A stretch of DNA of 64,000 nt, taken from assembly GCA_018001695.1 (NCBI GenBank), contig JAGNHN010000009.1, positions 18,528 through 82,527 on the forward strand, read 5' to 3'. The DNA is from Lentimicrobiaceae bacterium (lineage in GTDB: Bacteria; Bacteroidota; Bacteroidia; Bacteroidales; JAGNHN01). Below, in pieces: positions 6,139-60,222 of this stretch. The notes below the pieces were generated by a model. The model did no database searches. It had not been told where the DNA came from and worked only from the letters and a program-made list of their open reading frames with translations. A program made the translations under genes and the position numbers. Position 1 is the stretch's first letter. Each line of letters begins with the position of its first letter.

Positions 6139-6180
6139 AAAAAAAGCGACTGCCCTGCGTCTTAAGTAACAACAGGGCAG
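6139..6180 (-). terminator. Rho-independent terminator of the 6258-10745 gene
   Basis: CTGCCCTG (6150-6157) pairs with CAGGGCAG (6173-6180). On the minus strand the stem is followed by a T7 run (A-run 6139-6145 on the plus strand). Confidence 0.75.
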
Positions 6181-6257
6181 CCGGTGAGTTTGAAAAGATT
6201 TCAGGCCGTATGGCCCAACTTTTCAATCAGGCCAATGACGTCACCTTCGTGATGACA

Positions 6258-10745: not shown

Positions 10746-10894
10746 ATCGGCGATCTTAAAGGGGGTTTCTACAAATGTCGGCAAAAAAACACCCTGATCC
10801 TACCATGGGACCTCGCAGTTTTACCGGATTTAACCAAAACTTAGCTTCTGGATGCTGGCAAAAGTCCTGTAATTCTTATCATTAGCCAGTGAAT

Positions 10895-32216: not shown

Positions 32217-32253
32217 ATAGCGTTATGATGCCTTTTCATAACGCTATTTTTTT
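32217..32253. terminator. Bidirectional hairpin terminator between the giant adhesin gene and the convergent O-methyltransferase gene
   Basis: A 12-bp perfect stem, ATAGCGTTATGA (32217-32228) with TCATAACGCTAT (32236-32247), a 7-nt loop, then a T-run to 32253. The right arm contains the methyltransferase stop codon (32244-32246). Confidence 0.8.
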
Positions 32254-32870: not shown

Positions 32871-32907
32871 ATCAGCATGGTGTCGAAAAACTATCTCATA
32901 ATCCTGA

Positions 32908-38504: not shown

Positions 38505-38885
38505 ATGATGTTGAAATTCAATCATATCAAATCACTTAGGAACCTGTTCCTGATCCTCTTTACTGCCTGTTTACCCTGGTTAGCTTCTGCATACAAAGGA
38601 CCCATTGATAAGCCACAGGCAAGATCCGCATCCCATATCCACATTCAGGCTGTAAAAAATGCCGTCATTGTTCATTTTAGGATGGACGCACCCGGTGTGG
38701 CAGGGATCACACTTAAGGATGCCAGGGGGCGCTGTCTTTACTTCTATGCAGGCTATTATGCCGAACCGGGTCTTTATACCCATGTGTGGGAAAGCGGCCC
38801 GCTCAGTGCCGGCACATTGCTATTTGAAGTCACCCATGACGGTAGCCGGCGCGAAACAGGTCAGGTCGTGATCACCCCTCCCTGA
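38505..38885 (+). CDS. Hypothetical small secreted protein
   Basis: 126-aa ORF with a signal-like N-terminus (LFLILFTACLPWLASA) and a beta-rich remainder. Its 3' end overlaps the convergent gene by 25 nt. No family recognised. Confidence 0.4.
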   Translation: MMLKFNHIKSLRNLFLILFTACLPWLASAYKGPIDKPQARSASHIHIQAVKNAVIVHFRMDAPGVAGITLKDARGRCLYFYAGYYAEPGLYTHVWESGPLSAGTLLFEVTHDGSRRETGQVVITPP

Positions 38886-41878
38886 GGTTGCCCTGTTGCG
38901 GGTTCCCGGCCTTCTTTGTAGATAACACCCAGGTTACGTTTACCATCGATCTTGACAACCAGCGGCTGTGAAAAACGCACATGGCGCAGGAATTCATCTT
39001 CGTAAACTGCAGGCTGAGCCTTCAGATAATCCACATCATAATGCCCGTCACGTATATATGGGTTGATGGTAAAATATCCTACCCTGAAAGACGTGAGGTT
39101 TTGAAAGAAATGCGTTCCCTGGCTGGGGTCAATGCGGTAATTCTCCAGGCTGGATTCGATGATTACCCGAGCTCCGGAAATATGTGGCCACTTGACCGGG
39201 ATCCCAAGCCATGGGTCGGAAGATCCCCAGCGGCCAGGCCCGATGATGATATACGGCCGCTTTTCCTTTAAGAACCGGTCGTTGAGTTCAAATACCCTGT
39301 CGGCGATCCTTGGACTTTGTGCGGGGTCAAATGCATCAGGCTTAACATACAGGATATCATAGATTTCGCGGTTAATACCATTGCCCAGCGCCGACTTGCA
39401 ATACACCACGGTTTCATCTATCCGGACCTGCTCCAGGTTTTCATCTATGGTTTCCTTATTATCAACCACAGGCCTTATTTGCAACAGATTAAAGATCCGG
39501 GGTTCTCCTTCCTTGCGGTTCAGCTCCATGGCAAACTCGATCTCGATGGGTTTGTTCATCTCCCTCTGACCTATCTCAAGACAGGTTTGCAGTATCTCCG
39601 CCAATGGGAAAACGTTATGGCTCAGGATATGCGAGAAGGTGATGAGCTTCTTTCCTTCATACTGGACACCATCCCGGATCATATGGTTGGCAAAGTCAAA
39701 GGTAGAGGCCACATGCTTCAGGGACCCATCGCCTTCTGCTTCTGCGATGCGCAGTTGCATCAGGTTGATACCATCATCGATGCATGGATAAAAGGCGCCG
39801 GCATCCAGGTTGAGCGCGAAAAAAGTCTTCTGCGTCTCCCGAAGCGCCATTTCCGGATTGGAAAGCTGCAGCACCTTACGCGGATATTTTGGAGAAAAAC
39901 GCAGCGTCTGCCCGCCATCCACGATGTATTTACCAAGACCGAATGCAATATTGACGATGCCATCCTCGGGGCGTTCCGGGTGAATGGGGTAGAAATTGAT
40001 GGACCTTGCAACCCCGCTGATCGTTGGATAAAAACGGTTACCGTACTGCCATCCAATGACTTCCTGCAGGACGATGGCCATCTTTTCCTCATCGATCACA
40101 TTTGAAGTCGCCGACATATATGCTTTGGACGCTTTGAAGAAGGCTGAAGCATAGACACTTTTGATGGCATTGCTCAGCATCTCGATCATCAGGCGCTCCT
40201 CATTGCGGATATTAGGAATCATATACGTCGAATATATCCCTGCAAACGGCTGATAGTGACTATCTTCCAGGAGACTCGACGAACGGATTGCAATAGGATT
40301 GCTCACCACCGTGATAAACGTATACAGGTCTTCATGAATCCTGAAAGGCAGGCGGGCCTGGATGAAATGCTGCAGTATTTCCTCATCCGGTGTATCCCCC
40401 AGCGCTACCTTGTACAGGTTGTTCTCCTCCATGAATTCATCGAAGATATCTGTACACAGCACCACTGTCTTGGGAGTGGAGATAAGCGTGCCTTCGAAGC
40501 GGCTGAAGAGCTGATTCCGTTTAATGAGAGAATCCAGGAAGGCGAGTCCGCGCGCCTTACCACCAATACTGCCATCACCGATGCGGGTAAAGCTGAGGTA
40601 TTCATCGAAGCGCTCACGGTTGAACTCTGCAATCACACCCCTCGCCTTGTTGAACCTGAAGTTCGCGATCGCATCAAAAAGGTAACGCCTCACCTCATCC
40701 AGGTCCCTGAAGTCTTCGGGCCTTAATTCCTTGAACAGGCGGGCAAGGGGAAAGACAGCACGGGCATTGAGCCAGCGTGAGAAGTGATTTCGTGAGATGT
40801 GGTAAAAAAGTACGTCATCCGGGATATCGAAAATGGTTTCCTGCAGGGATTTCAGATCGGATGCCCTGGCCACCTCGCGGTTCGAAACCGGATCCACAAA
40901 CACGAAATCCCCGAAGGCAAAATGTTCACGGATATAATTCCTCAGTTCAATGGATAATGTCTTGCTGTTTTTATTGATAAATCCAACCCCCATTTCCCTG
41001 GCCCTTCCTGCCATTTCATCCTCCGAAGACTGCAGGAGGAATGGTATAAAAGCGTCATCAGCTTTGACCTTCCGGCATAAGCGAAGCCCGGCCTCCTTGT
41101 CTTCATAACCGTTGCGTTTGTAAGACACATCGGAGATAATCCCGAGCAGGTTTTTCTTATACTTCTCATATAGTGCGATGGCTTCCTCATACTGAGTTGC
41201 GAGGACGATCTTGGGACGTCCCCGCATCCGAAGCATCTTCTGGTGCTCGTTCAGCCCCTCCGCCATGAATACCTTGCTCTGCTTGAAGATGATCTTGTAG
41301 AGATGGGGCAGATAGCTTGAATAAAAACGTATAGAATCTTCCACCAGCAACAGGATCTGTACCCCTTCCTCCTTGGCATCATGCTCCACATTCATCTTAT
41401 CCTCAATCAGCTTGATGATGGCCAGCAACAAATCTGTATTCCCAAGCCAGGAAAACACATAATCGATGGCCTGCATATCATCCTGGGCTGCCTTGATCTT
41501 GACTTCCCTGGAGAAAGGGGTCAGCACAACGATAGGTATGCGGGGGTATTTGTTCTTCATTCGCTTTGCCAGGGCGAAGGAATCTGAGTCCTCCGGACTT
41601 AGCATCGTAATGATGAGGTCTATCTTTTCCTCTTCCAGCACCTCAAAAGCTTCCATTTCGGTGTGCACCTGGATAAACTGTGGCGGGTACCGCAGGTTGA
41701 GGGCCACGTATTCGTTGAATATCTGCTCGTCGATGCGCCCGTCATCTTCCAGCATAAAGGCGTCATAAGCACTGGAAATCAGAAGCACATGATAGATCCG
41801 CTTCTTCATCAGGTTATGAAAGGCGGTGTCGGTGAAATAGACCTTATAAGGAGCAATAGGGTTGATCTTCGAAGCCAT
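38861..41878 (-). CDS. PEP/pyruvate-binding (PPDK_N) domain protein with an N-terminal pseudo-receiver + receiver domains; no phosphohistidine swivel domain seen
   Basis: The ORF runs 38861-41947. The likely start is MASKINPIAPYK at 41878. REC-like 1 is HVLLISS...IDLIITM...IPIVVLT (acceptor Asp missing). REC-like 2 is ILLLVED...LLGIISDVS...IPFLLQSS. PPDK_N motifs: GDGSIGGKARGLAFL, IAIRSSSLLEDS, QPFAGIYST. No GG.TSHAA motif found. Confidence 0.8.
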   Translation of the reverse strand: MASKINPIAPYKVYFTDTAFHNLMKKRIYHVLLISSAYDAFMLEDDGRIDEQIFNEYVALNLRYPPQFIQVHTEMEAFEVLEEEKIDLIITMLSPEDSDSFALAKRMKNKYPRIPIVVLTPFSREVKIKAAQDDMQAIDYVFSWLGNTDLLLAIIKLIEDKMNVEHDAKEEGVQILLLVEDSIRFYSSYLPHLYKIIFKQSKVFMAEGLNEHQKMLRMRGRPKIVLATQYEEAIALYEKYKKNLLGIISDVSYKRNGYEDKEAGLRLCRKVKADDAFIPFLLQSSEDEMAGRAREMGVGFINKNSKTLSIELRNYIREHFAFGDFVFVDPVSNREVARASDLKSLQETIFDIPDDVLFYHISRNHFSRWLNARAVFPLARLFKELRPEDFRDLDEVRRYLFDAIANFRFNKARGVIAEFNRERFDEYLSFTRIGDGSIGGKARGLAFLDSLIKRNQLFSRFEGTLISTPKTVVLCTDIFDEFMEENNLYKVALGDTPDEEILQHFIQARLPFRIHEDLYTFITVVSNPIAIRSSSLLEDSHYQPFAGIYSTYMIPNIRNEERLMIEMLSNAIKSVYASAFFKASKAYMSATSNVIDEEKMAIVLQEVIGWQYGNRFYPTISGVARSINFYPIHPERPEDGIVNIAFGLGKYIVDGGQTLRFSPKYPRKVLQLSNPEMALRETQKTFFALNLDAGAFYPCIDDGINLMQLRIAEAEGDGSLKHVASTFDFANHMIRDGVQYEGKKLITFSHILSHNVFPLAEILQTCLEIGQREMNKPIEIEFAMELNRKEGEPRIFNLLQIRPVVDNKETIDENLEQVRIDETVVYCKSALGNGINREIYDILYVKPDAFDPAQSPRIADRVFELNDRFLKEKRPYIIIGPGRWGSSDPWLGIPVKWPHISGARVIIESSLENYRIDPSQGTHFFQNLTSFRVGYFTINPYIRDGHYDVDYLKAQPAVYEDEFLRHVRFSQPLVVKIDGKRNLGVIYKEGREPATGQPQGGVITT

Positions 41879-42039
41879 AGGTAGTAATACTGTCTGAAGT
41901 TGAATACCGGATACCAATGTTACGTTAAAAATGCTTTGGTTCCGCATGTTCTGCAGAACAGCATGATACCAATCTTAACACCCTTTAACTTGCTCATTCC
42001 TTCTGAAAAAAGTACATTTGGGTGTTCATTCGAACCGGC

Positions 42040-44304: not shown

Positions 44305-45153
44305 TTACATGGAGACATTTCGAACAAGCCAGTCCAGGGCATGGTCATCATTGCAGGGAATGACAGTAAACTGACTTTGCAGCTCAATGGCTGCATTGCC
44401 GGTAACATAAGCCCGTCGGGCCACTTCGAGCATATCCAGGTCGTTGTAGTCATTGCCCATTGCCACCAACTCATGCGCTCCAACGCCAAGACGTCGCATC
44501 AGAAAGTGAAGGGCGTCGCCCTTGGACACACCATGAGGAAAGACCTCCATCCAGAAACTCCTGTGGTCAATCGGAGAGGTAGTGCGGATGACTTTAAAGG
44601 CCTTCAGGCCGGCTGCCAATCCATTAAAAGCAGACACGGAAGGCGCCAGGATGGTCAGGAACTGGGCAGCTCCGGCCATGTCTGTCTTTTCTTCGTCCCA
44701 CCATTCCCAGAAACCCTTGTAAATCTCCATCCTCCTCAGGAAATCAGGATGAAGGGCCGTATCCGCCCTGTAAACATGAAAGCGGTGGTTTTCGGGTACC
44801 GGATGATGCACCATAAAAGAGATGTCCCGATCCATGAAATAAGCCGCTATCCGGCCTGCATCAACTTGATCCAGTCCTTTGCTCCAGATCAGGTCACCCG
44901 ACTCCACCTCAAGAATACCCGCCCCGGTAGAGAACACAATATAATCAACTGGCAGGAGGCCAGACAATGCCCGTTTCAATGAGAATATGGATCTACCGGT
45001 AGCCAGCACCCTGCAAATGCCCCTGCGGCCCAGCTCATGTAAAGCTTCGAGGTTTTCTTCACTCAAACGGCCCCGGCTGTCCAGTATCGTTCCGTCAAGA
45101 TCCGTAGCCAGCACCTTAAACCCAGGTCCACCTATGCCTTCACTTGTTTTCAT
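44305..45153 (-). CDS. Cof-type HAD-IIB family hydrolase
   Basis: The ORF runs 44305-45234. The likely start is MKTSEGIGGPGFKVLATDLDGT at 45153. HAD motifs: DLDGTIL, ATGRS, AMGNDYNDLDML. Confidence 0.82.
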   Translation of the reverse strand: MKTSEGIGGPGFKVLATDLDGTILDSRGRLSEENLEALHELGRRGICRVLATGRSIFSLKRALSGLLPVDYIVFSTGAGILEVESGDLIWSKGLDQVDAGRIAAYFMDRDISFMVHHPVPENHRFHVYRADTALHPDFLRRMEIYKGFWEWWDEEKTDMAGAAQFLTILAPSVSAFNGLAAGLKAFKVIRTTSPIDHRSFWMEVFPHGVSKGDALHFLMRRLGVGAHELVAMGNDYNDLDMLEVARRAYVTGNAAIELQSQFTVIPCNDDHALDWLVRNVSM

Positions 45154-45248
45154 TAATACGAAGTTAGCGAGAATAGTTACCTTCAAGATAATTTGTAAAG
45201 GACGTGTTGAAGGTGTGTTTGAATAATTTTTCAAATTTTTAAATGAAT

Positions 45249-45288
45249 TGAACTATTGTTCATTATATTTGCATTGAACAAATGCTCA
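45249..45288. promoter_or_regulatory. Two TGAAC-N4-GTTCA-type inverted repeats upstream of the DUF134 gene
   Basis: A perfect copy, TGAAC tatt GTTCA (45249-45262), and an imperfect second copy, TGAAC aaat GCTCA (45275-45288). They end 8 nt before the ATG at 45296. The centres are 26 nt apart. Confidence 0.45.
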
Positions 45289-45295
45289 TTTAAGC

Positions 45296-45874
45296 ATGTC
45301 ACCTAACTTGAAGCGCCCGAGAAAGATACTCAATCCACCGCTTGTAAAGGGATTCAAGCCTTACGGTCCTGTACTCTCCCAGGGCAGGGATGCGATCATG
45401 ATGCATTTTGAAGAATACGAAGCGCTTCGTTTGTGTGATTATGACATGCTGAATCATCACGATGCATCACAGGAAATGGGTGTATCACGGCCTACCTTCA
45501 CCCGCATCTATGCATCGGCAAGAAAAAAAATCGCCCGGGCCTTTGTAGAAGGTAAACAGATCACCCTGGAAGGTGGCAAAGTGTACTTTGACAGTGACTG
45601 GTATCACTGTCTGGATTGTGGATGTTATTTCAATCATCCGGAGATGCACCTGCCAGTTTCTCATTGTCCGTTATGCGGCCATCAGGGGTTGACCAGGGCC
45701 ATACCTGATTCCCTTGTCGAGACTACAGAAGATTCTGCCGTAGATTACTGCATATGTCCAAGCTGCGGGAAAGAAATTGAACATATACCTGGTATACCTT
45801 GCAACGCTGAATACTGTCCTGTCTGCCATACGAGAATGAGAAGAAAAGGAAAACCATCATGCCAGGAGCTTTGA
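45296..45874 (+). CDS. DUF134 (UPF0251) putative DNA-binding protein with a C-terminal double zinc-ribbon extension
   Basis: 192 aa. RPRKILNPPLVKGFKPYG...EEYEALRLCDYDMLNHHDASQEMGVSRPTFTRIYASARKKIA is the DUF134 core (sigma-70 region-4-like HTH). The C-terminus carries CLDCGC..18..CPLC and CPSC..15..CPVC. Confidence 0.8.
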   Translation: MSPNLKRPRKILNPPLVKGFKPYGPVLSQGRDAIMMHFEEYEALRLCDYDMLNHHDASQEMGVSRPTFTRIYASARKKIARAFVEGKQITLEGGKVYFDSDWYHCLDCGCYFNHPEMHLPVSHCPLCGHQGLTRAIPDSLVETTEDSAVDYCICPSCGKEIEHIPGIPCNAEYCPVCHTRMRRKGKPSCQEL

Positions 45875-45884
45875 ACTTGTAAAA

Positions 45885-46211
45885 ATGAAGATAGCCATCA
45901 CATCCCGTGGAAACACACCGGACGCGCTGCTGGATCAGCGGTTTGGCCGCTGCAATTACTTCGTTGTGCATGACTCCCAGACAGGAAGCATCGAATACAT
46001 CCCCAACCCCGGCAAGGTCCTGGAGGAAGGTGCCGGCCCTGCCGCTGTTGAACTTCTCTCCTCACGTAAAGTGATGATGATCATATCAGGAGAATTTGGG
46101 ATTAAAATCAAGCCCATACTGGACAGCCTGAAAGTTCAGCTGATTATCATCAAAGACCAGGAAAGAACGGTCGGAGAAATCATACAGATGTTAAACCATA
46201 AAAAGCATTGA
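45885..46211 (+). CDS. NifB-C/NifX-type (Nitro_FeMo-Co, COG1433) cluster-binding protein, copy 1
   Basis: 108 aa. MKIAITSRGNTPDALLDQRFGRCNYFVVHD...GAGPAAVELLSSRKVMMIISGEFG is the typical fold signature. Confidence 0.8.
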   Translation: MKIAITSRGNTPDALLDQRFGRCNYFVVHDSQTGSIEYIPNPGKVLEEGAGPAAVELLSSRKVMMIISGEFGIKIKPILDSLKVQLIIIKDQERTVGEIIQMLNHKKH

Positions 46212-46402
46212 TCATGCCTAAACTGGACGGAACGGGGCCGGAAGGCCATGGAAGAAAAACCGGAAGAGGCCTGGGACGGTGTACAAACCAGGACCATATA
46301 TCTAACAGCAAGGAACTCGGACAAGGTATGGGAACGCGAAGGAGATCAGGTGGAGGACAAGGCAAGGGAAAGCGCCTGAGAAGTGGTGAAACCCATGAAT
46401 AA
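46208..46402 (+). CDS. DUF5320 family small protein
   Basis: 64 aa. MPKLDGTGPEGHGRKTGRGLGRC matches the M-P-x-x-D-G-T-G-P...G-R-G-x-G-x-C head of DUF5320. There is an ATGA start/stop overlap with the preceding gene. ATG 46214 is an alternative start. Confidence 0.7.
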   Translation: MIMPKLDGTGPEGHGRKTGRGLGRCTNQDHISNSKELGQGMGTRRRSGGGQGKGKRLRSGETHE

Positions 46403-46480
46403 CCAGGTAGAACAGTACATTGGCAGGATATGATCAGAGAAGTCAGAAATGATCGCACGCGACATTCAGCGACAACACGT

Positions 46481-46500
46481 TTGTAATCAATCGTTTACAA
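46481..46500. promoter_or_regulatory. Inverted repeat TTGTAA-N8-TTACAA upstream of the peroxiredoxin gene
   Basis: TTGTAA (46481-86) and TTACAA (46495-500), about 55 nt upstream of ATG 46553. This is only a 6-bp arm in AT-rich DNA, so it is weak. Confidence 0.25.
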
Positions 46501-46552
46501 TCATTTAAATCAGACATTTTTATTCCATTCATTAACCTAACACTTAACAACC

Positions 46553-47266
46553 ATGGAACAACAAAATCAGGAATTCTATGCCATGCCACGCATTGGCGAG
46601 AAAGCGCCTTCATTCAAAGCTGTCACCACCCAGGGTGAGATCAATTTTCCTGCGGATTTCAGTGGCAATTGGGTGATTCTGTTCAGCCATCCGGCCGACT
46701 TCACACCCGTCTGTACATCCGAGTTCATGACTTTCGCACATATGGAAGACAAGTTCACCGAAGCCAACTGTAAACTCGTTGGACTCTCGGTGGATGGCTT
46801 GTACAGTCATATTGCCTGGCTCAGGACCATCAAGGAAAAGATTGAATTTAAAGGGATGAAGGACATCGAGGTGAAGTTCCCTTTAATTGAGGACATCACG
46901 ATGGAAGTAGCCAAAAAGTACGGCATGATGATGCCGGGAGAAAGCAACACAAAAGCTGTCAGGGCTGTATTCTTTGTCGATCCTAAAGGGATTATCCGCG
47001 CCATCATTTATTACCCTCTGAGCCTGGGCCGCAACTTTGACGAATTATACCGTGCCCTTATCGCGATGCAGGCAGCCGATGCCTTCTCCATAGCGACACC
47101 CGCCGACTGGCGGCCGGGGGATGAAGTCATCGTACCCACAGCCGGATCATGTGGTGTTGCCAAGGAAAGAATGGAAAATCAGAAGGATATCAAATGCTAC
47201 GACTGGTTCTTCTGCACCAAACCATTAAGTAAAGAAGCTGTTGAGAAAACCATTCTGAAGAAATAA
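46553..47266 (+). CDS. Peroxiredoxin, Prx6/1-Cys-like subfamily with extra C-terminal Cys pair
   Basis: 237 aa. NWVILFSHPADFTPVCTSEF (peroxidatic Cys), HIAWLRTI, C-terminal CGVAKERMENQKDIKCYDWFFC. Followed by a strong hairpin terminator. Confidence 0.9.
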   Translation: MEQQNQEFYAMPRIGEKAPSFKAVTTQGEINFPADFSGNWVILFSHPADFTPVCTSEFMTFAHMEDKFTEANCKLVGLSVDGLYSHIAWLRTIKEKIEFKGMKDIEVKFPLIEDITMEVAKKYGMMMPGESNTKAVRAVFFVDPKGIIRAIIYYPLSLGRNFDELYRALIAMQAADAFSIATPADWRPGDEVIVPTAGSCGVAKERMENQKDIKCYDWFFCTKPLSKEAVEKTILKK

Positions 47267-47274
47267 AGCCGGAG

Positions 47275-47323
47275 CCCGCATGCCCTGTCATCCTGAAGAA
47301 GGGGCAGGCATGCGGGGGCTTTT
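47275..47323 (+). terminator. Rho-independent terminator after the peroxiredoxin gene
   Basis: CCCGCATGCCCTG (47275-47287) pairs with CAGGCATGCGGG (47305-47316) with one bulge, then GGCTTTT. It lies 8 nt past the prx stop. Confidence 0.8.
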
Positions 47324-47337
47324 AACTCCTTTTCCCG

Positions 47338-47709
47338 ATGAAAAAACGTATCGCCATTCCCATGGACGGTTCCGTATTGTCCGCTCATTTCGGTCATTGC
47401 CAGGCATTTGCTTATGTTGATGTCGTTGACCATAAAATTTCTGAAATATCCCTGATGCGACCGCCTGAACATCAGCCCGGATCTTTCCCCAGATGGGTCG
47501 CCGCCCAGGGAGCCACCGACGTCATCGCAGGAGGTATGGGGCCTATGGCCATCAGCCTGTTCAACGAGGCCGGAATCAATGTCTTTGTTGGTGCACCCGT
47601 AGATACACCCTCCAGCCTGGTTGAGCGATTCCTTGCCGGAACACTCGACCTAAATGCAAACTATTGTGACCATGACCATCATAGTGGTCATGGAGCGTGT
47701 AAGCACTGA
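47338..47709 (+). CDS. NifB-C/NifX-type (COG1433) cluster-binding protein, copy 2, with a His/Cys-rich tail
   Basis: 123 aa. RIAIPMDGSVLSAHFGHCQAFAYVDV...ATDVIAGGMGPMAISLFNEAGINVF. Tail CDHDHHSGHGACKH. Confidence 0.8.
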   Translation: MKKRIAIPMDGSVLSAHFGHCQAFAYVDVVDHKISEISLMRPPEHQPGSFPRWVAAQGATDVIAGGMGPMAISLFNEAGINVFVGAPVDTPSSLVERFLAGTLDLNANYCDHDHHSGHGACKH

Positions 47710-48601
47710 TGCAGTGAAAATTGCCATCGCCAGCGGGAAAGGCGGGACAGGGAAAACTACCCTGGCAACCAACCTGGCAGCACTTATTGCTGAAAAACAG
47801 GAAATAGCGCTTGTTGACCTTGACGTGGAGGAGCCCAATTCCGGCTTATTCCTTAAGGCTGAGCAAGTGCACGAGGAAAGTCTGATGAAACAGGTCCCAC
47901 AATGGGATACTGATAAATGCTCGCTATGCGGGAACTGCACCAAAATCTGCCAATTCCATGCCGTCATCCAATTAGGCCCATCTATCCTCATTTTCCCGGA
48001 ATTATGCCATAGCTGCTATGCCTGCAGTGAGTTATGTCCTGAAGGCGCCCTTCCAATGACTGGCCGGAAAATTGGGAAACTCAGGGAATCCCAGGCAGGC
48101 AAGCTACATTTTCTTGAGAGCCGGTTGGACATCGGGGAGGAACAGGCTGTACCGGTTATCGCATACACAAGGAAATATGCCAGCAAGTATGATCACCTGC
48201 CCATCATCTTCTATGACGCCCCGCCCGGCACATCCTGTCCGCTTATTGAAACCATCCGGGATACCGACTATGTCATCCTGGTGACCGAGCCAACACCTTT
48301 CGGACTGCATGACCTGAGTCTGGCCGTGGAAACGGTCCGCATGTTCCGTATCCCCTTTGGCGTTGTATTGAACCGGTTTGGTATTGGAAATGAGGATGTC
48401 CATGAGTACTGCCGGCACGAAGACATTCCTATACTGGCCTGTATTCCCAATGACCGCCGTATTGCACAACTGTATTCCAGGGGAGAACTGGTCTATCGTT
48501 ATGTTCCGGAATTTCGCGCAGCCCTGGAGCCCCTCTGTGATTTCTTTCTTGATCACAATAAAAAAGTACAAGATGAAAGAGATCGTGATGATATCAGGTA
48601 A
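47690..48601 (+). CDS. MinD/ParA-type P-loop ATPase with inserted 2x[4Fe-4S] ferredoxin domain (COG1149), copy 1
   Basis: The track ORF starts at 47654. In-frame ATG 47690 or GTG 47714 (VKIAIASGKGGTGKTT) is more plausible. Deviant Walker A GKGGTGKT. Ferredoxin motifs CSLCGNCTKICQFHAV and CHSCYACSELCPEGAL. Confidence 0.82.
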   Translation: MERVSTDAVKIAIASGKGGTGKTTLATNLAALIAEKQEIALVDLDVEEPNSGLFLKAEQVHEESLMKQVPQWDTDKCSLCGNCTKICQFHAVIQLGPSILIFPELCHSCYACSELCPEGALPMTGRKIGKLRESQAGKLHFLESRLDIGEEQAVPVIAYTRKYASKYDHLPIIFYDAPPGTSCPLIETIRDTDYVILVTEPTPFGLHDLSLAVETVRMFRIPFGVVLNRFGIGNEDVHEYCRHEDIPILACIPNDRRIAQLYSRGELVYRYVPEFRAALEPLCDFFLDHNKKVQDERDRDDIR

Positions 48602-49448
48602 AGGTGGGACAGGAAAAACATCCCTTACGGCGGCTTTCGCCATCCTGGGTGGCAAGGATGTTGTAGTGGCCGATTGCGATGTGGATGCTGCCGACATGCA
48701 CCTGCTGATGAAGCCTGATTATGCTTATTCTGAAGATTTCTTCAGTGGATCGCTGGCGGTGATCGATCCTTTTCAATGCACCGGATGCGGGGATTGCATG
48801 CAGATCTGCCGGTTTAGCGCCGTTGAGGTCAGGAATCGTATTTACAAGGTGGACCCCTTGCGATGCGAAGGCTGCGGCTATTGCGCACGGATCTGTCCTG
48901 CCAACGCCATCAAAAACAAGGAAAAACGGGCAGGTCAATGGTACATCTCAGGTATACGGACAGGCAGCAGCATGGTGCATGCCAGGTTGGCCATCGGTGC
49001 CGATCATTCCGGTAAGCTGGTAGCCAAGGTAAAAAATGAAGCCAAAGACCTGGCTTTCGAAGAAAGATGCACCTATGTCCTCGTGGATGGCTCCCCAGGC
49101 ATAGGATGCCCGGTCATCTCATCCCTATCCGGGGCAAACCTGGCAGTTTTGGTAACAGAGCCCACAATCTCGGGTTTGCATGATCTGAAAAGGGTTTATG
49201 CTGTGGTTAAAAAGTTTGGCATCCAGGCAGGATGCATTATCAACAAAGCGGATATCAACGCGGAAATGCAGCGCCAGATACGTCAGTTTCTTCTTGACGA
49301 AAATATTGTTCACCTGGGTGATCTTCCGTATGATGAAGCATTTACCAAATCACTCGTAGCCGGGAACACCATCCTGGAATCCAACAACGAAACAATAATC
49401 CAACTCATTACAAGGATATGGGATAGAATCAAATCCCTTACCTCATAA
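48573..49448 (+). CDS. MinD/ParA-type P-loop ATPase with inserted 2x[4Fe-4S] ferredoxin domain (COG1149), copy 2
   Basis: The track ORF starts at 48378. ATG 48573 gives MKEIVMISGKGGTGKTS and overlaps copy 1 by 29 nt. Ferredoxin motifs CTGCGDCMQICRFSAV and CEGCGYCARICPANAI. DGSPGIGCPV. Confidence 0.82.
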   Translation: MKEIVMISGKGGTGKTSLTAAFAILGGKDVVVADCDVDAADMHLLMKPDYAYSEDFFSGSLAVIDPFQCTGCGDCMQICRFSAVEVRNRIYKVDPLRCEGCGYCARICPANAIKNKEKRAGQWYISGIRTGSSMVHARLAIGADHSGKLVAKVKNEAKDLAFEERCTYVLVDGSPGIGCPVISSLSGANLAVLVTEPTISGLHDLKRVYAVVKKFGIQAGCIINKADINAEMQRQIRQFLLDENIVHLGDLPYDEAFTKSLVAGNTILESNNETIIQLITRIWDRIKSLTS

Positions 49449-49459
49449 AACACCATTTT

Positions 49460-49798
49460 ATGAAAATTGCATTCACATCACAAGGCACCCACTGGGATGC
49501 CCCCATGGACCCCCGCTTCGGGCGAACCGCCTACATTGCGCTGTTCGATGAGGGAAAGAACGAAATTAAATTTGTCAATAACCAGGAATTGCAGGAAGGA
49601 TCGCATGGCGCAGGCACGGCAACAGCCCAAAAGATCTTCGAACTCCAGCCGGATATCCTTATCACCGGCAATGGCCCTGGGGACAAAGCTGCCATAGCCC
49701 TCCAGCAAACGCAGATTAAAATATTCATTCATGCCAATGACATGAGCCTACGCGAGGCTTATTTGCATTATAAAGAAGGTAAACTCACCGCATTGTAA
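49460..49798 (+). CDS. NifB-C/NifX-type (COG1433) cluster-binding protein, copy 3
   Basis: 112 aa. MKIAFTSQGTHWDAPMDPRFGRTAYIALFD...GAGTATAQKIFELQPDILITGNGPG. Confidence 0.8.
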   Translation: MKIAFTSQGTHWDAPMDPRFGRTAYIALFDEGKNEIKFVNNQELQEGSHGAGTATAQKIFELQPDILITGNGPGDKAAIALQQTQIKIFIHANDMSLREAYLHYKEGKLTAL

Positions 49799-49871
49799 AT
49801 CATTCTAACATTATTTCATTCAACGGAACCTGAAGTTAAACCCACCAGTGTTCCTTCAAAAGAAAAACACC

Positions 49872-51053
49872 ATGAACACAAACGACAAGGGATTCAACAC
49901 CAAGCTGATACATGCTGGTATTTTTGAAGATGAATTTGGAAGTGCCACCGTTCCGATCTACCAGACATCCACCTTCAAATTCAGAAGCGCCCAGCATGGC
50001 GCTGACTGCTTTTCGGGTGCCAGTGACGGATACATCTATACCCGCATTGGAAACCCAACCATTCGTGCTTTTGAGCGCAACATTGCCGAGCTAGAAGGAG
50101 GCTATGATGGTATAGCAACCAGCAGCGGCATGGGCGCAATCACCAGTGTTTATATGGCGCTGCTGAACGGTGGTGACCATATCATCAGTTCAGGTGCTGT
50201 GTATGGCCCGGCGCGGGGTGTCCTGGAACAGGATTTTTCCCGTTTCCATGTCGAGGCCAGCTTTGTTAACACAGCAAATCTGGATGAAATTATCAGTGCT
50301 ATCCGGCTAAATACCAGGGTGTTATATATTGAAACTCCGGCCAATCCGACGATGGAGATCACCGACATCGCTGCCTGCGCAGACCTGGCCAAAAAGCACG
50401 GCCTCACCCTGGTCGTCGATAACACATTCTGTTCTCCCTTTCTCCAAAACCCGCTGGACCTGGGTGCTGATGTGGTGCTGCACTCCATCACCAAATTCAT
50501 CAATGGCCATGCGGATATCGTCGGGGGTGTAATTGTGACAAGGGAAGAAGCGCTTTACAGGAAGATCCGTCATTCTATGGTCTATATGGGATGCAATATG
50601 GATCCGACCCAGGCTTTCATGGTTTTACGCGGTGTCAAAACACTGGCATTGCGCATGGAGCGCGCTCAGGCCAATGCCATGAAAGTTGCCGGCTTCCTGG
50701 AATCCCATCCCAAAGTAGCATGGATCAAGTACCCGGGACTTACTTCCCATCCCCAATATGATCTGGCTTGTCGCCAGATGCGTGGATTTGGCGCTATGAT
50801 GAGCTTCGGACTTAAGGGCGGATACGATGCAGGTAAGAAGCTCATGGACAACGTGCATCTTGCTCTGCTGGCGGTATCCCTGGGTGGCGTTGAAACCCTC
50901 ATCCAGCATCCGGCTTCGATGACCCATGCCGGTATCAGCAAGGAGCACAAGTTGGCGGCAGGTATCACGGATGATCTGGTGCGTTTCTCCGTCGGGATTG
51001 AAGACGTAGAAGATATTATTAAAGACTTAAATCACGGATTATCAATGGTATAA
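49872..51053 (+). CDS. PLP-dependent Cys/Met-metabolism enzyme, most like methionine gamma-lyase
   Basis: The track ORF starts at GTG 49848. ATG 49872 gives MNTNDKGFNTKLIHAG. Motifs: PIYQTSTF, GADCFSG...YIYTRIGNPT, PLP-lysine motif HSITKFINGHAD. MGL versus cystathionine gamma-synthase or OAH sulfhydrylase cannot be settled by eye. Confidence 0.75.
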   Translation: MNTNDKGFNTKLIHAGIFEDEFGSATVPIYQTSTFKFRSAQHGADCFSGASDGYIYTRIGNPTIRAFERNIAELEGGYDGIATSSGMGAITSVYMALLNGGDHIISSGAVYGPARGVLEQDFSRFHVEASFVNTANLDEIISAIRLNTRVLYIETPANPTMEITDIAACADLAKKHGLTLVVDNTFCSPFLQNPLDLGADVVLHSITKFINGHADIVGGVIVTREEALYRKIRHSMVYMGCNMDPTQAFMVLRGVKTLALRMERAQANAMKVAGFLESHPKVAWIKYPGLTSHPQYDLACRQMRGFGAMMSFGLKGGYDAGKKLMDNVHLALLAVSLGGVETLIQHPASMTHAGISKEHKLAAGITDDLVRFSVGIEDVEDIIKDLNHGLSMV

Positions 51054-51064
51054 TAATAAAAAAA

Positions 51065-52426
51065 ATGAAAACCACAGATGTTTTAATTATTGGCGGCAGT
51101 GCTGCCGGGATGGTGGCTGCCGTGACCGGCAAATCATCATGGTCAGACAAAAGGTTCACACTCGTTAAAATGCATAAAGAGGTGATGGTGCCCTGTGGAA
51201 TCCCCTACATTTTCGGTACGCTCGACTCCAGTATGCTCAACATTATGCCTGTCGATACTATACTGGCCAAAGCCGGTGTGGAATCCATCGTAGATGAGGT
51301 CACTGACATTGACAAAGAGGCCAAGACAGTTAAGTTGAACAGTGGAGAAGAGATTCACTATGAGAAACTGGTCATTGCTACTGGTTCTATCCCTGTGCTC
51401 CCGAAATGGCTAAAAGGGACCGACCTGGATCATGTTTTTATAATCCCTAAAGACAAAACTTACCTGGATGATATGAAGGATAAGCTGCACGGGCTTAAGA
51501 AAGTCATTGTGGTAGGCGCCGGATTTATCGGGGTGGAATTCTCAGATGAGTTAAACAAGTCGGGGCATGAAGTGATTCTGGTAGAGAAGGAAGACAGCAT
51601 CCTCTTCTCAGCCTTTGACGATGAGGTAGCCGAAAGAATTGGTGAAATCCTGAAAAACAGGGGAGTCAAAATCATCACCGGGAAAGGTATCGCTGAAATC
51701 CAGGGCAAAACCAAAGTAGAATCGGTATTACTGGAAAATGGAGAACCCCTCCAGGCAGATGCTGTGATTCTGTCCATGGGATACAAGCCCAATACAGAAC
51801 TGGCCATCAAATCAGGGATTATGATGGATGAAAGCGGATTTATCGCTGTAGATGAATACATGCGCACGCATCACAAGGATATTTTCGCCATTGGAGACTG
51901 TGCCCAAAAGCGTGATTTTGTGACACGTAAAAGGGTGCCCACAATGTTAGCTTCAACAGCCTGTGCCGAAGCCAGGGTTGCAGGCATGAATCTTTTCAAT
52001 ATCCATGTTGTAAAAACCTTCAGCGGTACCATCAGCATCTATTCAACTGCGATAGGGGATCATGGATTTGGCACGGCCGGTTTGATTGAACGTCGCGCAC
52101 TCGAGGAGGACATTGCAGTAATAACAGGCACTTTCGAAGGGGTAGACCGTCATCCGGGCAACTTACCGGATACACATAAACAGATGGTGAAATTGATCGT
52201 TGCCAAATACTCGGGTGTCATTATCGGAGGAGAGGTAATCGGAGGATTAAGTGCAGGTGAATTAACCAATGTGATCGGCCTGGCTATCGAAAACAGGATG
52301 TCCGTGAACTCCTTGCTCATTTCCCAGATTGGCACACATCCCTGTCTGACCGCATCTCCGGCTGCCTATCCCCTGATCAAAGCTGCAGAGATCATTTCCG
52401 CTAAGCTACGAAACAACCACTCATAA
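51065..52426 (+). CDS. FAD-dependent pyridine nucleotide-disulfide oxidoreductase (NADH oxidase / CoA-disulfide reductase-like, single redox Cys)
   Basis: 453 aa. DVLIIGGSAAGMVAA (FAD), VPCGIPYIF (the family's conserved redox Cys context), KKVIVVGAGFIGVEFS (NAD), FAIGDCA. Confidence 0.8.
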   Translation: MKTTDVLIIGGSAAGMVAAVTGKSSWSDKRFTLVKMHKEVMVPCGIPYIFGTLDSSMLNIMPVDTILAKAGVESIVDEVTDIDKEAKTVKLNSGEEIHYEKLVIATGSIPVLPKWLKGTDLDHVFIIPKDKTYLDDMKDKLHGLKKVIVVGAGFIGVEFSDELNKSGHEVILVEKEDSILFSAFDDEVAERIGEILKNRGVKIITGKGIAEIQGKTKVESVLLENGEPLQADAVILSMGYKPNTELAIKSGIMMDESGFIAVDEYMRTHHKDIFAIGDCAQKRDFVTRKRVPTMLASTACAEARVAGMNLFNIHVVKTFSGTISIYSTAIGDHGFGTAGLIERRALEEDIAVITGTFEGVDRHPGNLPDTHKQMVKLIVAKYSGVIIGGEVIGGLSAGELTNVIGLAIENRMSVNSLLISQIGTHPCLTASPAAYPLIKAAEIISAKLRNNHS

Positions 52427-52443
52427 CAACTTGACCTTGAGCT

Positions 52444-52508
52444 AAAAAAGAAGGAGGACACAGCTTGATTAAAACCAATCAGGATGAAATGTTTTCCTTC
52501 TTCTTTTT
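52444..52508. terminator. Possible bidirectional terminator between convergent Nox/CoADR-like and abgT genes
   Basis: AAGAAGGA (52448-52455) pairs with TCCTTCTT (52495-52502), flanked by an A-run and a T-run. The loop is long (39 nt) and holds a weaker inner stem (CTTGATT/AATCAGG), so this is a weak call. Confidence 0.3.
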
Positions 52509-54167: not shown

Positions 54168-57100
54168 TCAGGACCTGGTCAGCGCAGCCTGGAATTCCAT
54201 CTCAAACCGCTGACTCAGATGATTGCAGCCATGGGCAAACAATGGACCCGGCGTATCTTCCGAAGTCAGGAACAAAGGCATGAGCGTAGCGTGATATTCA
54301 GGTAAGAGCGACATCACTTCCGATCTCACTGTCAGCACATCACCTTCTGCTTTCAAGCCCAATGCTGCCATGATCCCCATGATCTGTGCAGGCCCATCCA
54401 CGCTTACCTGAGTCGGCAATACCGCATCGAACTCCTGGATAATCCGCTGTCCATTCGTGAAGGATCCCCCCATTTCAGCAGGATAAACCGCCGGCAGGAT
54501 GAGATCCGCAAATTCTGCAGTAGGTGTTATAAAATGATCCTGCACCACCACAAATTCAGCCTGCTTCATCCATTTCTTCACCCGCTCAGGGTCCAGGGCC
54601 GTCCCAACGGGATCTTCCCCAAAAATGAACAGCTGCCTGAACAACCCGCCATCCAGGCCTTGCAGGAGATCGTTGACAGGACCTGGCAAGGCAGGGATAT
54701 TCCAGGTGGCCTTCATCCTGGCTTCATTGCCGTTAACCGGCATTCCACCAACATGGAGATATGGATCCACACCCATGTCGAAAAGCCCGTGACTGTTGTT
54801 GTTTTCCTTGAGACCTATCAGACCGTTGGCTGTCTTACCCAGACGGCCTGTGATCAATGCCAGGTTGTACAACTCTATTACGGCCGCCGCACTCATGCCC
54901 TTTTCTGAGAAGAGTATGATGGCCCGTTGTTCCTGGCTGTATTCCCTTGCGAATGTCAGTAAATGGTCTGTACAGCAGGCGCCGGACTTTTCAAAGAGTA
55001 CATCGAAATCCTCCGCCAGCAGGGACTCTCTATATGTCTCGAATCCTTCTGTATTTCCATCAAGGAAAAGCTTGTTCTCCAGCCCATTCGCCAGGATGTA
55101 GTGGTTTACGGCACGCAGGAACCAGTAATAATGGGTAGCGCGGATCACCTGGTCCACCTTATGCCCCATGCGACTGCCTTCTTCCAGATTACTGATCATC
55201 CCCACCTTTACATGATGGCGCTGCCGGGCCATATTGACCATAAAACCCGCTACACCGTGGTCCTCATGCAATTCCGTGCCCATGATCCAAACATGATTGC
55301 AGTGCCTGAGATCCGACAGGAAAGCATTGCGACGACTCGTAAGACCGTAGCCTTCCCCTCTGCCCAGGTAATGAAAACTGCCGACATTGTTGGTCCCTGA
55401 CCCGGCCCTGGCCAGTTTCTGCACCAGGTACTGCTCCTCATTGGTGAGGCGCGCCCCGGCAAAGAAAGCAGACTCATCGGGTGCTACGGCACGTATCTTT
55501 TTCGCGATGAGATCAAAAGCCTCATTGAAGCTGATCTCTTTCCATGCTTCATTTTCTTTGAGCAGGGGTTTCTTCAGCCGGACAGGATCATTATAGTGGC
55601 GGTATCCAAACTTGCCCATGCGGCAGAGGTTGCCTTGCTGATTCACCTGCCCATTTGCACCATGTACCTTCATCACGAAATGTCTTTTGTGCTGCAGTTC
55701 AAGGGTACAGCCTACTGAGCAGTAAGTACAGATCGTCACGCCCTTGTCCAGTTTGACAGGGCCTGGTTTAAAGGGGACATTCTCAGAGATGGCAGCGGTT
55801 GGACAGGCTGAAATGCACAAACCGCAGGATTCGCAACTTGTTTCAAGCAGGGAATTTCCCATGGAAGGTGCCACGAAGGTATCAAACCCACGGTTTATCA
55901 ATCCCAGCGCCTGAGCACCCACGACCTCCTGGCATACACGGATGCAGCGGTTACAGAGTATACATTTGTTATTGTCTATCTCCACATAGGGATGCCGGAA
56001 ATCGACAGAATAATCCCTGTAGCTGCCCTCATAATGCTTTTGCTCTGCACCGTATTCTTCCGATAATCGCTTGAAATCACAATCATAGTAGGCTGTGCAC
56101 CCACATTCCAGACAGCGTGTCGTTTCTTTCAATGCGACCAAAGGACTTTCATAGCCCAGCTCAACCTCTTTGAAATTATTTCTCCTTGCAGGATCCAGGG
56201 TTGGCATTTCCTCTCTTTCCTGGGGGAGATAATGGCCGGCATATTCTGTCGGATGCTGTTCCCTGAAATTATCCTTGCGACTGATGAACTCCTTCTTTGG
56301 GGGTGTGATGGCCTGACCACTCAGAAACTGGTGGCAGGAATGAGCGGCCAGCCGGGCTTGTCCGATGGCCTGAATGAGGGTGGCCGGTCCGGTCACCCCA
56401 TCGCCTGCAGCAAACATACTGTCGATACCTGTTTGCAGCGTCTCAGGATTGGCATCGATATCCCCCCAGCGATTGACTTTCAGCTCACCCTGCCGGGTGT
56501 GGCCATTGATATCGTTGAGGAAATTCACATCCGTCTTCTGACCGATGGCTGCCAGGATGATATCGACTTCCACATCAAACTCCGAACCCTTGACAGGGAC
56601 GGGGCGGCGACGGCCGGAAGCATCCGGTTCGCCCAGTTCCATCCGCAGACAGGTCACTGATTTCACCTCACCGGCCTTGCCCTTGTTCACCATCACCGGG
56701 TTGGTAAGGAACATATATTCCACGCCCTCCAGTTTGGACTCGTGGATCTCGATAGGGTTTGCAGGCATCTCCGCCTCGGTGCGGCGGTAGATGACGTATA
56801 CTTTCTCAGCCCCACAGCGCAGGCTGGTCCGGCAACAGTCCATAGCCGTATTACCACCGCCCACCACGGCAACTTTTTTGCCACGAAAGTCCATCTTTAC
56901 ACCCGTCACCTCCATCTCTTTCAGGAAATCAATACCGGAGTAGACGCCTTTCGCATCTTCGCCCTCGGCTCCCAGAAGGGTACCGGTCTGGGATCCGATG
57001 GCCAGGACCACAGCATCGTACTTTTCCTGCAGATCAGCGTAGTGCAGGTTGTCGCCCAGCCTTTGGTTGTAATGGATCTGCACACCCAGTGCGCTGATTT

Positions 57101-59672: not shown

Positions 59673-59685
59673 AGCTATGCCTGTT

Positions 59686-60222
59686 TCATTCCATGGTTCC
59701 GTTTTCCGCCATTTCACGTATGCGGATGTCCTTGACGATGCGAACAGCCTCCTTGCCGGTCAGCTTGCCATAGGTCTCATCGCCAATCATCATCACCGGT
59801 GCCAGGGAACAGCATCCCAGGCAGGCCACCGATTCAATGGTGAAGAGCTTGTCATCCGTTGTACCCCCATCGGGAATGCCGAGTGCTTCGGTCAGGGCTT
59901 CGCTGATGGCATTGGCATTCTGCACATGACAGGCAGTTCCATGACAAACCTTGATGATGTGTTTACCCACCGGATGCAGCCTGAACTGGGCATAAAAGGT
60001 TGCTACACCATACATCTCACTAAGGTTGAGACCCGTATGCCTCGAGAGATATATAAATACGTCACGTGGAATATAGCCGTAAATATCCTGGGCGCCCTGC
60101 AGCAGTGGAATAAGGTTTCCCTTTTTATTCCTGTATTTCTGAATCAGCGGATCCAGTAGATGAAGGTCGATCCCGGGTTCCGCCTGAGGACGCTCTCGGG
60201 AATCTATCCTGACAACACGCAT
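59686..60222 (-). CDS. NuoE/HydC-type [2Fe-2S] thioredoxin-like subunit
   Basis: 178 aa. LIPLLQGAQDIYGYIP, VCHGTACHV, ESVACLGCCSLAPVMMI. Confidence 0.9.
   Translation of the reverse strand: MRVVRIDSRERPQAEPGIDLHLLDPLIQKYRNKKGNLIPLLQGAQDIYGYIPRDVFIYLSRHTGLNLSEMYGVATFYAQFRLHPVGKHIIKVCHGTACHVQNANAISEALTEALGIPDGGTTDDKLFTIESVACLGCCSLAPVMMIGDETYGKLTGKEAVRIVKDIRIREMAENGTME

Follow-up and report, generated by a model that had tools for sequence, protein, structure and literature searches.

The closest described relative of the gene cluster analysed here is the orange protein (ORP) system of Desulfovibrio. The ORP complex of D. vulgaris includes the ATPases Orp3 and Orp4, each with two [4Fe-4S] motifs, Orp5, a homolog of a small [2Fe-2S] protein, and Orp8, the orange protein itself (PMC6345978, PMC8359166). 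In Orp9, also called MrpORP, an Mrp/NBP35 domain is joined to a Di-Nase domain with a bound 3Fe-4S cluster; Orp3, Orp4 and Orp8 co-purify and accept Fe-S from MrpORP (PMC6345978). The orp operons are controlled by OrpR, a sigma-54 activator that has a PAS domain with Fe-S and turns them off at rising redox potential (PMC8359166). The function of the system is still debated, and a role in cell division was proposed (PMC6345978, PMC8359166). A further relative is IssA (PF2025), a thioferrate storage protein of Pyrococcus furiosus that joins a cationic tail rich in Gly to an IPR003731 domain; its authors note an uncharacterised mesophilic 'IssX' clade (PMC5524996). Here we describe a gene cluster at 45296-49798 on the plus strand of a 64,000-nt stretch (the window) of a contig from a Bacteroidales genome. 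The region is very probably a Bacteroidales member of the anaerobe-wide ORP-type operon.

Every open reading frame (ORF) of at least 200 aa in the window was annotated; Pfam calls were judged against gathering cut-offs and NCBIfam calls against the cut-offs of their models. A preliminary description of this DNA had reported eight same-strand genes with tiny gaps or overlaps, here numbered g1 to g8. All eight ORFs are present on the plus strand and, in profile hidden Markov model (HMM) searches, all scored above the Pfam thresholds of the families that had been named for them. Three encode NifX-like proteins of family PF02579 (Nitro_FeMo-Co, cut-off 26.3 bits), which we take to correspond to IPR003731: g2 (type A, 45885-46211, 41.9 bits, RFGRC motif), g5 (type B, 47338-47709, 58.7 bits, HFGHC motif and a His/Cys-rich C-terminus), and the orange-protein-like g8 (type C, 49460-49798, 39.4 bits, DPRFGR and GAG motifs). 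Two encode MinD/Mrp-like ATPases with a CbiA/ParA domain and two Fer4 matches each, namely g6 (paralog 1, 47654-48601, Orp3/4-like) and g7 (paralog 2, 48573-49448).

The best solved relative of g8 is the D. gigas orange protein (PDB 2WFB; E 1e-11, 48 bits, 107 aligned residues). The same structure is the best solved relative of g2 (E 8e-9), with TM and MTH1175 relatives next, and both genes encode the single-domain PF02579 proteins expected of orange-protein (Orp8) homologs. When compared with the MrpORP/Orp9 model NF041136, g5 scored 106.7 bits over positions 264-365, which form the C-terminal Di-Nase part. The ATPase genes reproduce the arrangement by which Orp3 and Orp4 are described, adjacent paralogs with two [4Fe-4S] motifs each (PMC6345978), and the ORP-type gene adjoins the pair, g6, g7 and g8 being contiguous. 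The D. gigas ORP sequence was rebuilt from a printed alignment and used as a database query, and this search returned the ORP relatives P0122 (75% identity) and P0189 (68%). Their clusters have the order [DUF134, Gly/Gln/Arg-rich ORF], ORP, ATPase, ATPase, NifX and an 82-84-aa Zn-ribbon protein; the bracketed pair occurs only in L088 and L089 (retrieved loci carry numbers beginning with L), and L090 has an unannotated 217-aa ORF in its place. The 2WFB and Di-Nase matches, the Orp3/4 architecture and the clusters of the ORP relatives therefore indicate that the window holds the same operon type. The earlier proposal of an Orp-like, non-nitrogen-fixing set of COG1433 NifX-like and COG1149 MinD-ferredoxin proteins is thus borne out by the 2WFB match, the ATPase architecture and the co-conservation described below. 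To call it an undescribed system was an overstatement, because its core is the published anaerobe-wide ORP operon.

The locus shares with the Desulfovibrio system an adjacent ATPase pair, a neighbouring ORP-type PF02579 protein, a Di-Nase-like PF02579 module, restriction to anaerobes and a dedicated local regulator. It differs in layout and in gene content. All genes are co-directional, whereas Desulfovibrio has two divergent operons with a sigma-54 promoter and OrpR between them; the divergent D. vulgaris layout was not seen in the two Desulfovibrionaceae loci retrieved (L079, L080) either. In place of the sigma-54 activator the cluster has a DUF134 gene and a putative palindromic operator, and no protein with a Sigma54_activat domain was found among the window ORFs of at least 200 aa. 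Beyond those Desulfovibrio strains that have been studied well, the usual partner is DUF134 and not OrpR. No protein reached the NF041136 cut-off of 450 bits for the Mrp/NBP35-Di-Nase fusion, the cluster contains no Mrp/NBP35 gene, and it has three separate NifX-like genes, a DUF5320 gene and an embedded peroxiredoxin (Prx) gene. It stands out as a variant by the Cys ribbons fused to its DUF134 protein, an IssA-like pair that is split, the embedded Prx, and the lack of Mrp, ARMT1-like and CGGC genes.

For a survey of the locus, the ATPase alignment was scanned against one genome per GTDB species, and the resulting 80 loci were annotated by HMMs built from Bacteroidales proteins. As these HMMs derive from few sequences, the locus counts are lower bounds. 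The loci span more than 20 anaerobic phyla, including archaea (Altiarchaeota, Methanocellaceae). Both ATPase paralogs were detected in 77 of the 80 loci and were adjacent, in the order paralog 1 then paralog 2, in 68; a NifX-like gene lay on the same strand in 71/80 and directly flanked the ATPase pair in 47/68. DUF134 was present in 41 loci, an Mrp/ParA-type ATPase in 28, DUF5320 in 14, an ARMT1-like gene in 13, CGGC in 10, and Prx and the lyase in four each (all of 80). Clustering of the g1-g8 families is far beyond chance, and the family set recurs in 80 independent species-level genomes; the preliminary description had made such co-conservation its own test, and the cluster passed it. The core consists of two MinD/Mrp-like ATPases flanked by NifX-like subtypes and preceded by DUF134 and DUF5320. 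The two latter had been described as partners with no assigned function, and this holds: essentially no literature on a function of DUF134 or DUF5320 was found, and the one paper naming UPF0251 merely lists a mutation.

The Bacteroidales neighbourhoods examined (Tenuifilaceae CYCD, a 6.4-Mb JGI genome and other contigs) have the order DUF134, NifX, DUF5320, [ferritin, Prx], NifX, ARMT1-like, [ZIP], CGGC, ATPase, ATPase, [NifX], [CobA-like], C-S lyase, flavoprotein, where brackets mark optional genes. The window carries a reduced cluster without the ARMT1-like, CGGC and CobA-like genes, and L008, L010 and L035 are similarly reduced. In most sister Bacteroidales clusters, ARMT1-like (DUF89) and CGGC genes lie between the second NifX-like gene and the ATPases (L003:9967-11291, L006:11078-12391, and L004:10096-12184, which adds a ZIP transporter); the window (47338-47709 region), L008, L010 and L035 cleanly lack this stretch. 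Genes for ferritin, Fur, ZIP and OsmC neighbour the sister loci.

Both ATPases have the Walker A sequence GKGGTGKT and, inserted after the P-loop, a ferredoxin domain with 2x[4Fe-4S] motifs, in which the eight Cys of 2x CxxCxxCxxxC are invariant. The 29-nt overlap reported between g6 and g7 is exact (48573-48601). Alternative starts of g6 are found at 47672 and 47690, one of which is likely the true start; the counterpart in the close relative L091 was called at 309 aa. In both paralogs and all aligned homologs an invariant Cys follows the Walker B Asp by seven residues in a PPGxxCP motif (g7 residues 172-180, DGSPGIGCP; g6, DAPPGTSCP), and this residue is a candidate cluster or metal ligand at a dimer interface. 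An AlphaFold2 (AF2) model of g7 (pLDDT 77.9) matched MinD, FlhG, ParA, BchL/NifH, Cfd1 and ApbC in Foldseek at TM ~0.5-0.6.

Two other ATPase systems invite comparison. Like Mrp/NBP35/ApbC and Cfd1-Nbp35, g6 and g7 are a paralog pair with a deviant Walker A and match the folds of 6G2G and 8ZKC (TM ~0.55-0.59). The Mrp Walker B region has the motif PPGTGD, which the PPGT-x-C of g6/g7 resembles. Unlike those proteins they lack the CxxC bridging motif, having a single invariant Cys, and they carry the inserted ferredoxin domain; with the NCBIfam models for ApbC and MrpORP they stay far below cut-off. With NifH/BchL and NifX/NafY/NifB the cluster shares the ATPase class and the carrier domain family. 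The Walker B Asp-Cys spacing of 7 is that of NifH (Asp125-Cys132), and 7UT9 and 8VQJ are among the fold matches. The NifH system differs in that here a second NifH-type cluster ligand and the nifHDK/EN/B genes are absent. As the preliminary description had stated, no nifHDK or nifEN occurs among the window ORFs of at least 200 aa. Nitrogen fixation was rejected, since the window has no nif structural or scaffold genes and g2, g5 and g8 have no NCBIfam match to NifX, NafY (as equivalogs) or NifB.

The three NifX-like proteins differ in their potential ligands. Type A (g2) has a single conserved Cys, in RFGRC, and type C (g8) has zero Cys, as in proteins that bind clusters non-covalently. The conserved residues of type B (g5) are H16, H19, C21, H45 and C110, including the HFGHC motif; these His and Cys are ligand candidates, consistent with a cluster-binding Di-Nase domain. 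The best PDB matches of g5 are TM1290 (1T3V/1O13) and PH0822. For g2, the PDB match to MTH1175 (E 1.9e-5) leads to an IssA-type protein (PMC5524996). The gene that follows it, g3 (46214-46402, 62 aa), belongs to DUF5320 (PF17253, 42.8 bits, cut-off 27, profile positions 1-53 of 99) and encodes a cationic Gly/Arg-rich protein with pI 10.9, 26% Gly and one Cys; the IssA tail has pI 10.7, is Gly-rich and has one Cys (PMC5524996). An ATGA overlap had been reported for g2 and g3, but the TGA of g2 lies at 46209-46211 and the ATG of g3 at 46214, leaving a 2-nt spacer; an overlap is possible only with the alternative g3 start TTG at 46208.

Homologs of g2 and g3 form a single ORF in L035 (L035:5810-6331), which is exactly NifX type A plus DUF5320. 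Gly/Arg-rich C-terminal tails were present on 14 of the 123 NifX-like ORFs of the retrieved loci, those of L035 and 13 other loci (among them L036:6428-7018, L058, L060, L066, L075, L049, L071, L054, L037 and L065), and the L036 fusion has in addition the second Cys ribbon, with which g1 ends. These natural fusions tie DUF5320 to the NifX-like domain and therefore to the iron-sulfur storage architecture of IssA. The window may resemble IssA/IssX in pairing a NifX-like globular domain, that of g2, with a cationic, Gly-rich, putatively disordered, single-Cys segment; unlike IssA, it has domain and tail-like segment in separate genes. IssA is described without MinD-ferredoxin partners in PMC5524996, whereas co-induction is seen in Palaeococcus, where the ten most sulfur-induced genes include IssA/SipA and two annotated as 'CobQ with Fe-S domain' (PMC6981617).

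The first gene of the cluster, g1 (45296-45874, 192 aa), encodes a putative DNA-binding regulator of DUF134 (PF02001, UPF0251; 80.4 bits, cut-off 27). The core of its AF2 model (aa 34-91, pLDDT 81-93) is helix-turn-helix (HTH)-like and superposes on sigma-70 region 4 and a DeoR HTH with a root-mean-square deviation of 0.6-0.9 A. The core is followed by two C-terminal Cys4 ribbons (aa 101-192, 45596-45874). For these Cys-rich modules no Pfam family was found, zinc-ribbon matches being below threshold, as with the match of aa 103-136 to Zn_ribbon_8. More than 1000 homologs of g1 were retrieved, those named all being from Bacteroidales/Bacteroidota metagenome-assembled genomes, and 11 Cys beyond residue 100 are invariant across 36 homologs. 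The ribbons may be candidate metal or redox sensors. Ribbons of both kinds occur free-standing in other ORP-type clusters (L088:10669-10917, L090:10651-10905 and ~20 small ORFs in L008-L087), one as an 82-84-aa Zn_ribbon_8 protein with a CCG-rich tail and the other as a 60-78-aa CxCPxCG...H..G.PC....CPxC protein without a Pfam family. One of these free-standing proteins may be the 'small iron-sulfur protein of the ORP operon' (Orp5).

Upstream of g1 we found a 14-bp palindrome with the consensus TG(A/C)ACATATGT(T/G)CA, the 'DUF134 box', in two copies that bracket the only promoter-like box of the cluster. The first copy, O1 (TGAACTATTGTTCA, 45249-45262), is an exact TGAAC-N4-GTTCA and the sole one in the window; the second, O2 (TGAACAAATGCTCA, 45275-45288), has one mismatch. 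Between them, on the plus strand, lies TATATTTG (45264-45271), a match to consensus only. TAnnTTTG is the -7 promoter consensus of Bacteroidetes, and this is its only intergenic occurrence in 45100-52500. In 10/10 Bacteroidales loci a box lies at most 60 nt upstream of the DUF134 gene, and it is likewise upstream of DUF134 in Neomarinimicrobiota, Calditrichota, Cloacimonadota, Desulfobacterota and Campylobacterota, with close variants in Ignavibacteria and Dehalococcoidia. In phyla with sigma-70-type promoters it sits between -35 and -10 and/or directly after -10. A second box 26 bp from the first was also found in L003, L019, L035, L011, L013, L021, L024 and L025.

Across the 80 loci, at least one box was present at -130 to +10 for 20 of the 29 DUF134 genes. 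We counted 29 boxes in 4,060 nt upstream of DUF134 and 66 in 1.0 Mb elsewhere, a 109-fold enrichment. Nineteen of the 24 exact boxes were at DUF134 promoters, and two more stood before the first gene of the L053 cluster, which encodes DUF134 last. Besides the window, the box-bearing loci are L003, L004, L006, L008-L014, L016, L019, L021, L023-L027, L029, L030, L035, L052, L053 and L058; one or two copies, overlapping promoter elements, stand upstream of DUF134 or of whichever gene opens the cluster. The 109-fold, cross-phylum enrichment upstream of DUF134 therefore suggests that the palindrome is a DUF134 operator in a repressor-like layout and that the operon is autoregulated. As far as the searchable literature shows, the DUF134 box and the NifX-DUF5320 fusions are new observations. 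Two other candidates were rejected. A Rex site is TGAA-N4-TTCA, and the window site (TGAA-N6-TTCA) does not fit it in spacing; palindromes upstream of the Prx gene (TTGTAA-N7-TTACAA) lack conservation and differ from the box. No structured RNA was found when the entire window was scanned with Rfam at gathering thresholds.

The embedded peroxiredoxin gene, g4 (46553-47266), had been called a 1-Cys peroxiredoxin. Its peroxiredoxin identity stands (AhpC-TSA 108.9 bits and 1-cysPrx_C; PRK13189 327.6 bits, cut-off 211), and the peroxidatic-Cys motif FTPVCTSEF and the best solved relative, 5OVQ (E 1e-66), place it in the Prx6 subfamily, archaeal type. The 1-Cys part is not clear, as CYDWFFC in g4 aligns with the C-terminal CxDWxxC of 5OVQ. 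In the Aeropyrum pernix enzyme this motif supplies the resolving cysteine; since it is retained, '1-Cys' here names a domain and does not establish a mechanism. The Prx gene is part of the cluster only in L001/L091-93, L006/7, L009 and L019; in L004 it is found upstream, on the opposite strand, together with ferritin and Fur. Prx, in many cases accompanied by ferritin, is thus a lineage-specific insert of about four Bacteroidales lineages and not a defining part of the system. A strong terminator had been noted after g4, and its hairpin is real: a stem with a U-run at 47265-47334 on the plus strand (-34.7 kcal/mol, z = -2.8), a putative terminator or attenuator. It ends 4 nt before the start of g5, which therefore leaves no room for a separate promoter. 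Hairpins of differing sequence stand at the matching position in L006 and L009.

Two plus-strand genes follow the cluster and are possible accessories. They had been named methionine gamma-lyase and CoADR/Nox-like flavoprotein, and these names are right at family level, with both proteins below the NCBIfam equivalog cut-offs. The first (49869-51053) is a pyridoxal-phosphate enzyme of Cys/Met metabolism (Cys_Met_Meta_PP, 499 bits) that is methionine gamma-lyase-like, scoring 486-490 bits with the NCBIfam models for that enzyme, below their cut-offs. The second (51065-52426) is a single-Cys flavoprotein of the CoADR/Nox class with a PCGIPY motif (Pyr_redox_2, 202 bits; CoADR model 228 bits, cut-off 458). 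A lyase gene after the cluster is confined to Bacteroidales loci (L004, L006, L009, L019, L035, L091), and a CoADR-like gene is present in L006, L009, L019 and L035. L091, whose DUF134 protein is 96% identical, lacks the CoADR-like gene; there an AbgT transporter gene comes directly after the lyase gene.

From the observed family membership, synteny, conserved box and gene fusions we infer all of the biochemistry proposed here. The gene cluster probably stores or passes on metal-sulfur clusters. In the explanation that we somewhat favour as a whole, with its regulation and mechanism included, one promoter (45264-45271) would transcribe all genes, and the two palindromes bracketing it would form a DUF134 operator through which the operon is autoregulated, the Cys ribbons of DUF134 sensing metal or redox state and so setting expression. 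The hairpin after the Prx gene would lower read-through into g5-g8. As for the mechanism, we tentatively suggest an ATP- and electron-driven handling of metal-sulfide clusters, probably Fe-S. The g6 and g7 proteins would form an ATP-dependent heterodimer, as Orp3-Orp4 of Desulfovibrio, which would couple ATP hydrolysis and electrons from [4Fe-4S] to the loading, release or repair of anionic metal-sulfide clusters. [quoted passage not shown] Prx, and ferritin in sister loci, would be a protective add-on, and the lyase and the CoADR-like enzyme possible suppliers of sulfide or persulfide, in Bacteroidales only. The oxygen link made in the preliminary description is plausible, because OrpR responds to redox (PMC8359166) and ferritin, Fur and Prx neighbour related loci.

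Several points weigh against this explanation. The metal of ORP-type proteins is disputed, the D. gigas ORP having been isolated with a Mo-Cu-S cluster and not with Fe-S (PMC6345978). The comparison with IssA is one of architecture and composition, and the aromatic residues that its tail contains are missing from g3. The fold matches of g1 have weak E-values (0.08-0.3), and it is solely from co-occurrence that we infer binding of DUF134 to the box. The box core, GAAC-N4-GTTC, is also the Gram-positive LexA box; a LexA (Cheo) box is nevertheless unlikely, for the palindrome accompanies DUF134 clusters in phyla with differing LexA motifs or, to our knowledge, without LexA. The cluster in the window has neither the ARMT1-like and CGGC genes typical of its sisters nor any Mrp/NBP35 gene. 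Foldseek does not separate g7 among MinD, ParA, NifH and Cfd1, and so does not discriminate between MinD, NifH and Nbp35 as its nearest relative. Finally, given the strength of the hairpin, g1-g4 and g5-g8 could be transcribed separately, with an unrecognised promoter.

This last point is part of a wider alternative, namely that the genes are not one unit, that Prx, lyase and CoADR-like genes are passengers and that g1-g3 and g5-g8 are expressed separately. The strong hairpin fits such a view, as do the presence of Prx within the cluster in only about four Bacteroidales lineages (elsewhere or absent in others), the restriction of the downstream lyase and CoADR-like genes to Bacteroidales and the loss of the latter from the 96%-identical relative. 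However, no promoter-like box or operator lies between the hairpin and g5, tiny gaps and overlaps join g1-g3 and g5-g8, ferritin, Fur and Prx adjoin the cluster in L004, and Prx and ferritin are kept inside it in lineages whose g1 identity is only 57-66%. We consider the passenger explanation unlikely.

The other two alternatives keep the cluster as it is and change its task. It might handle Mo/W-Cu thiometallates, storing, detoxifying or delivering Mo/W, or sequestering Cu, in sulfidic habitats. The similarity of g8 and g2 is indeed greatest to the D. gigas ORP, carrier of a non-covalent [S2MoS2CuS2MoS2] cluster (PMC6345978), and a molybdopterin-domain, formate-dehydrogenase-like fusion is encoded 4.4 kb downstream (54168-57863). 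[quoted passage not shown] Alternatively, the MinD-like ATPases might act in cell division or spatial positioning, with the metal clusters as redox sensors. MinD provides the closest solved folds (1HYQ, E 2e-11), loss of orp expression leads to morphological defects in D. vulgaris, and MrpORP is found at the poles (PMC8359166, PMC6345978). Against this, the MinD equivalogs TIGR01968 and TIGR01969 gave 33-67 bits with cut-offs of 201-213, no minC- or minE-like gene is among the cluster neighbours, NifH/BchL, Cfd1 and ApbC match nearly as well as MinD, and the invariant partners are NifX-like cluster-binding proteins and not division proteins. A positioning role appears very unlikely, and the handling of metal-sulfide clusters by an ORP-type operon remains the explanation that we prefer.

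Elsewhere in the window, the formate-dehydrogenase-like fusion on the minus strand (1231 aa) combines 2Fe-2S, GltD-like flavoprotein, Nqo3-like ferredoxin and molybdopterin-oxidoreductase domains and adjoins a NuoF-like protein of 607 aa (57894-59717, minus strand); together they look like an NAD(P)H-linked formate-dehydrogenase-like Mo/W enzyme. A plus-strand gene at 36516-38384 encodes a 622-aa protein with an unusual make-up, a cyclic-nucleotide-binding domain joined to a lyase of the class II fumarase/aspartase type, and a minus-strand gene at 38861-41947 encodes 1028 aa with a response-regulator receiver (at the Pfam cut-off) followed by a PPDK_N domain, which is PEP-utilising and ATP-binding. 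A low-GC patch (32244-34297, 0.436 compared with ~0.50 elsewhere) contains the gene of an AbiEii-type nucleotidyltransferase toxin (32908-33693), overlapped by a 203-aa ORF without a Pfam match (33686-34297); the two probably form a type IV toxin-antitoxin pair on a short acquired stretch. Three secreted or surface proteins of very large size are encoded at 2228-10784 (minus strand) and 25133-32167 (plus strand), two of them (1235 and 1508 aa) with lamin-tail and type IX secretion sorting domains and the third (2344 aa) with CARDB, MopE-type metal-binding and SprB repeats. The type IX secretion C-terminal domains and the sources of the homologs indicate Bacteroidales, in agreement with the Bacteroidota background assumed in the preliminary description.

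Few 'conserved hypothetical' gene sets of strict anaerobes are as widespread as the ORP cluster, and since the isolation of the orange protein its role has been debated among cell division, Fe-S biogenesis and Mo/Cu handling. In Bacteroidales its recurrence beside peroxiredoxin, ferritin and Fur points to iron and oxidative-stress physiology rather than to cell division. The DUF134 protein and its box form a candidate pair of regulator and operator, shared by many phyla, that could help to find the switching signal and to define the regulon in any genome. Possible, if doubtful, is a more far-reaching idea: that the cluster represents a distinct ATP-driven system by which anaerobes store and mobilise iron-sulfide, supplying or repairing Fe-S beside ISC, SUF and NIF, in which IssA/IssX-like NifX proteins would hold Fe-S polymers or clusters, a MinD-ferredoxin heterodimer would load or reductively release them, and DUF134 would found a family of metal- or redox-sensing repressors with an operator conserved from Bacteroidota to Campylobacterota and Desulfobacterota. 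If true, it would alter the view of Fe-S supply in anaerobic gut and sediment bacteria.

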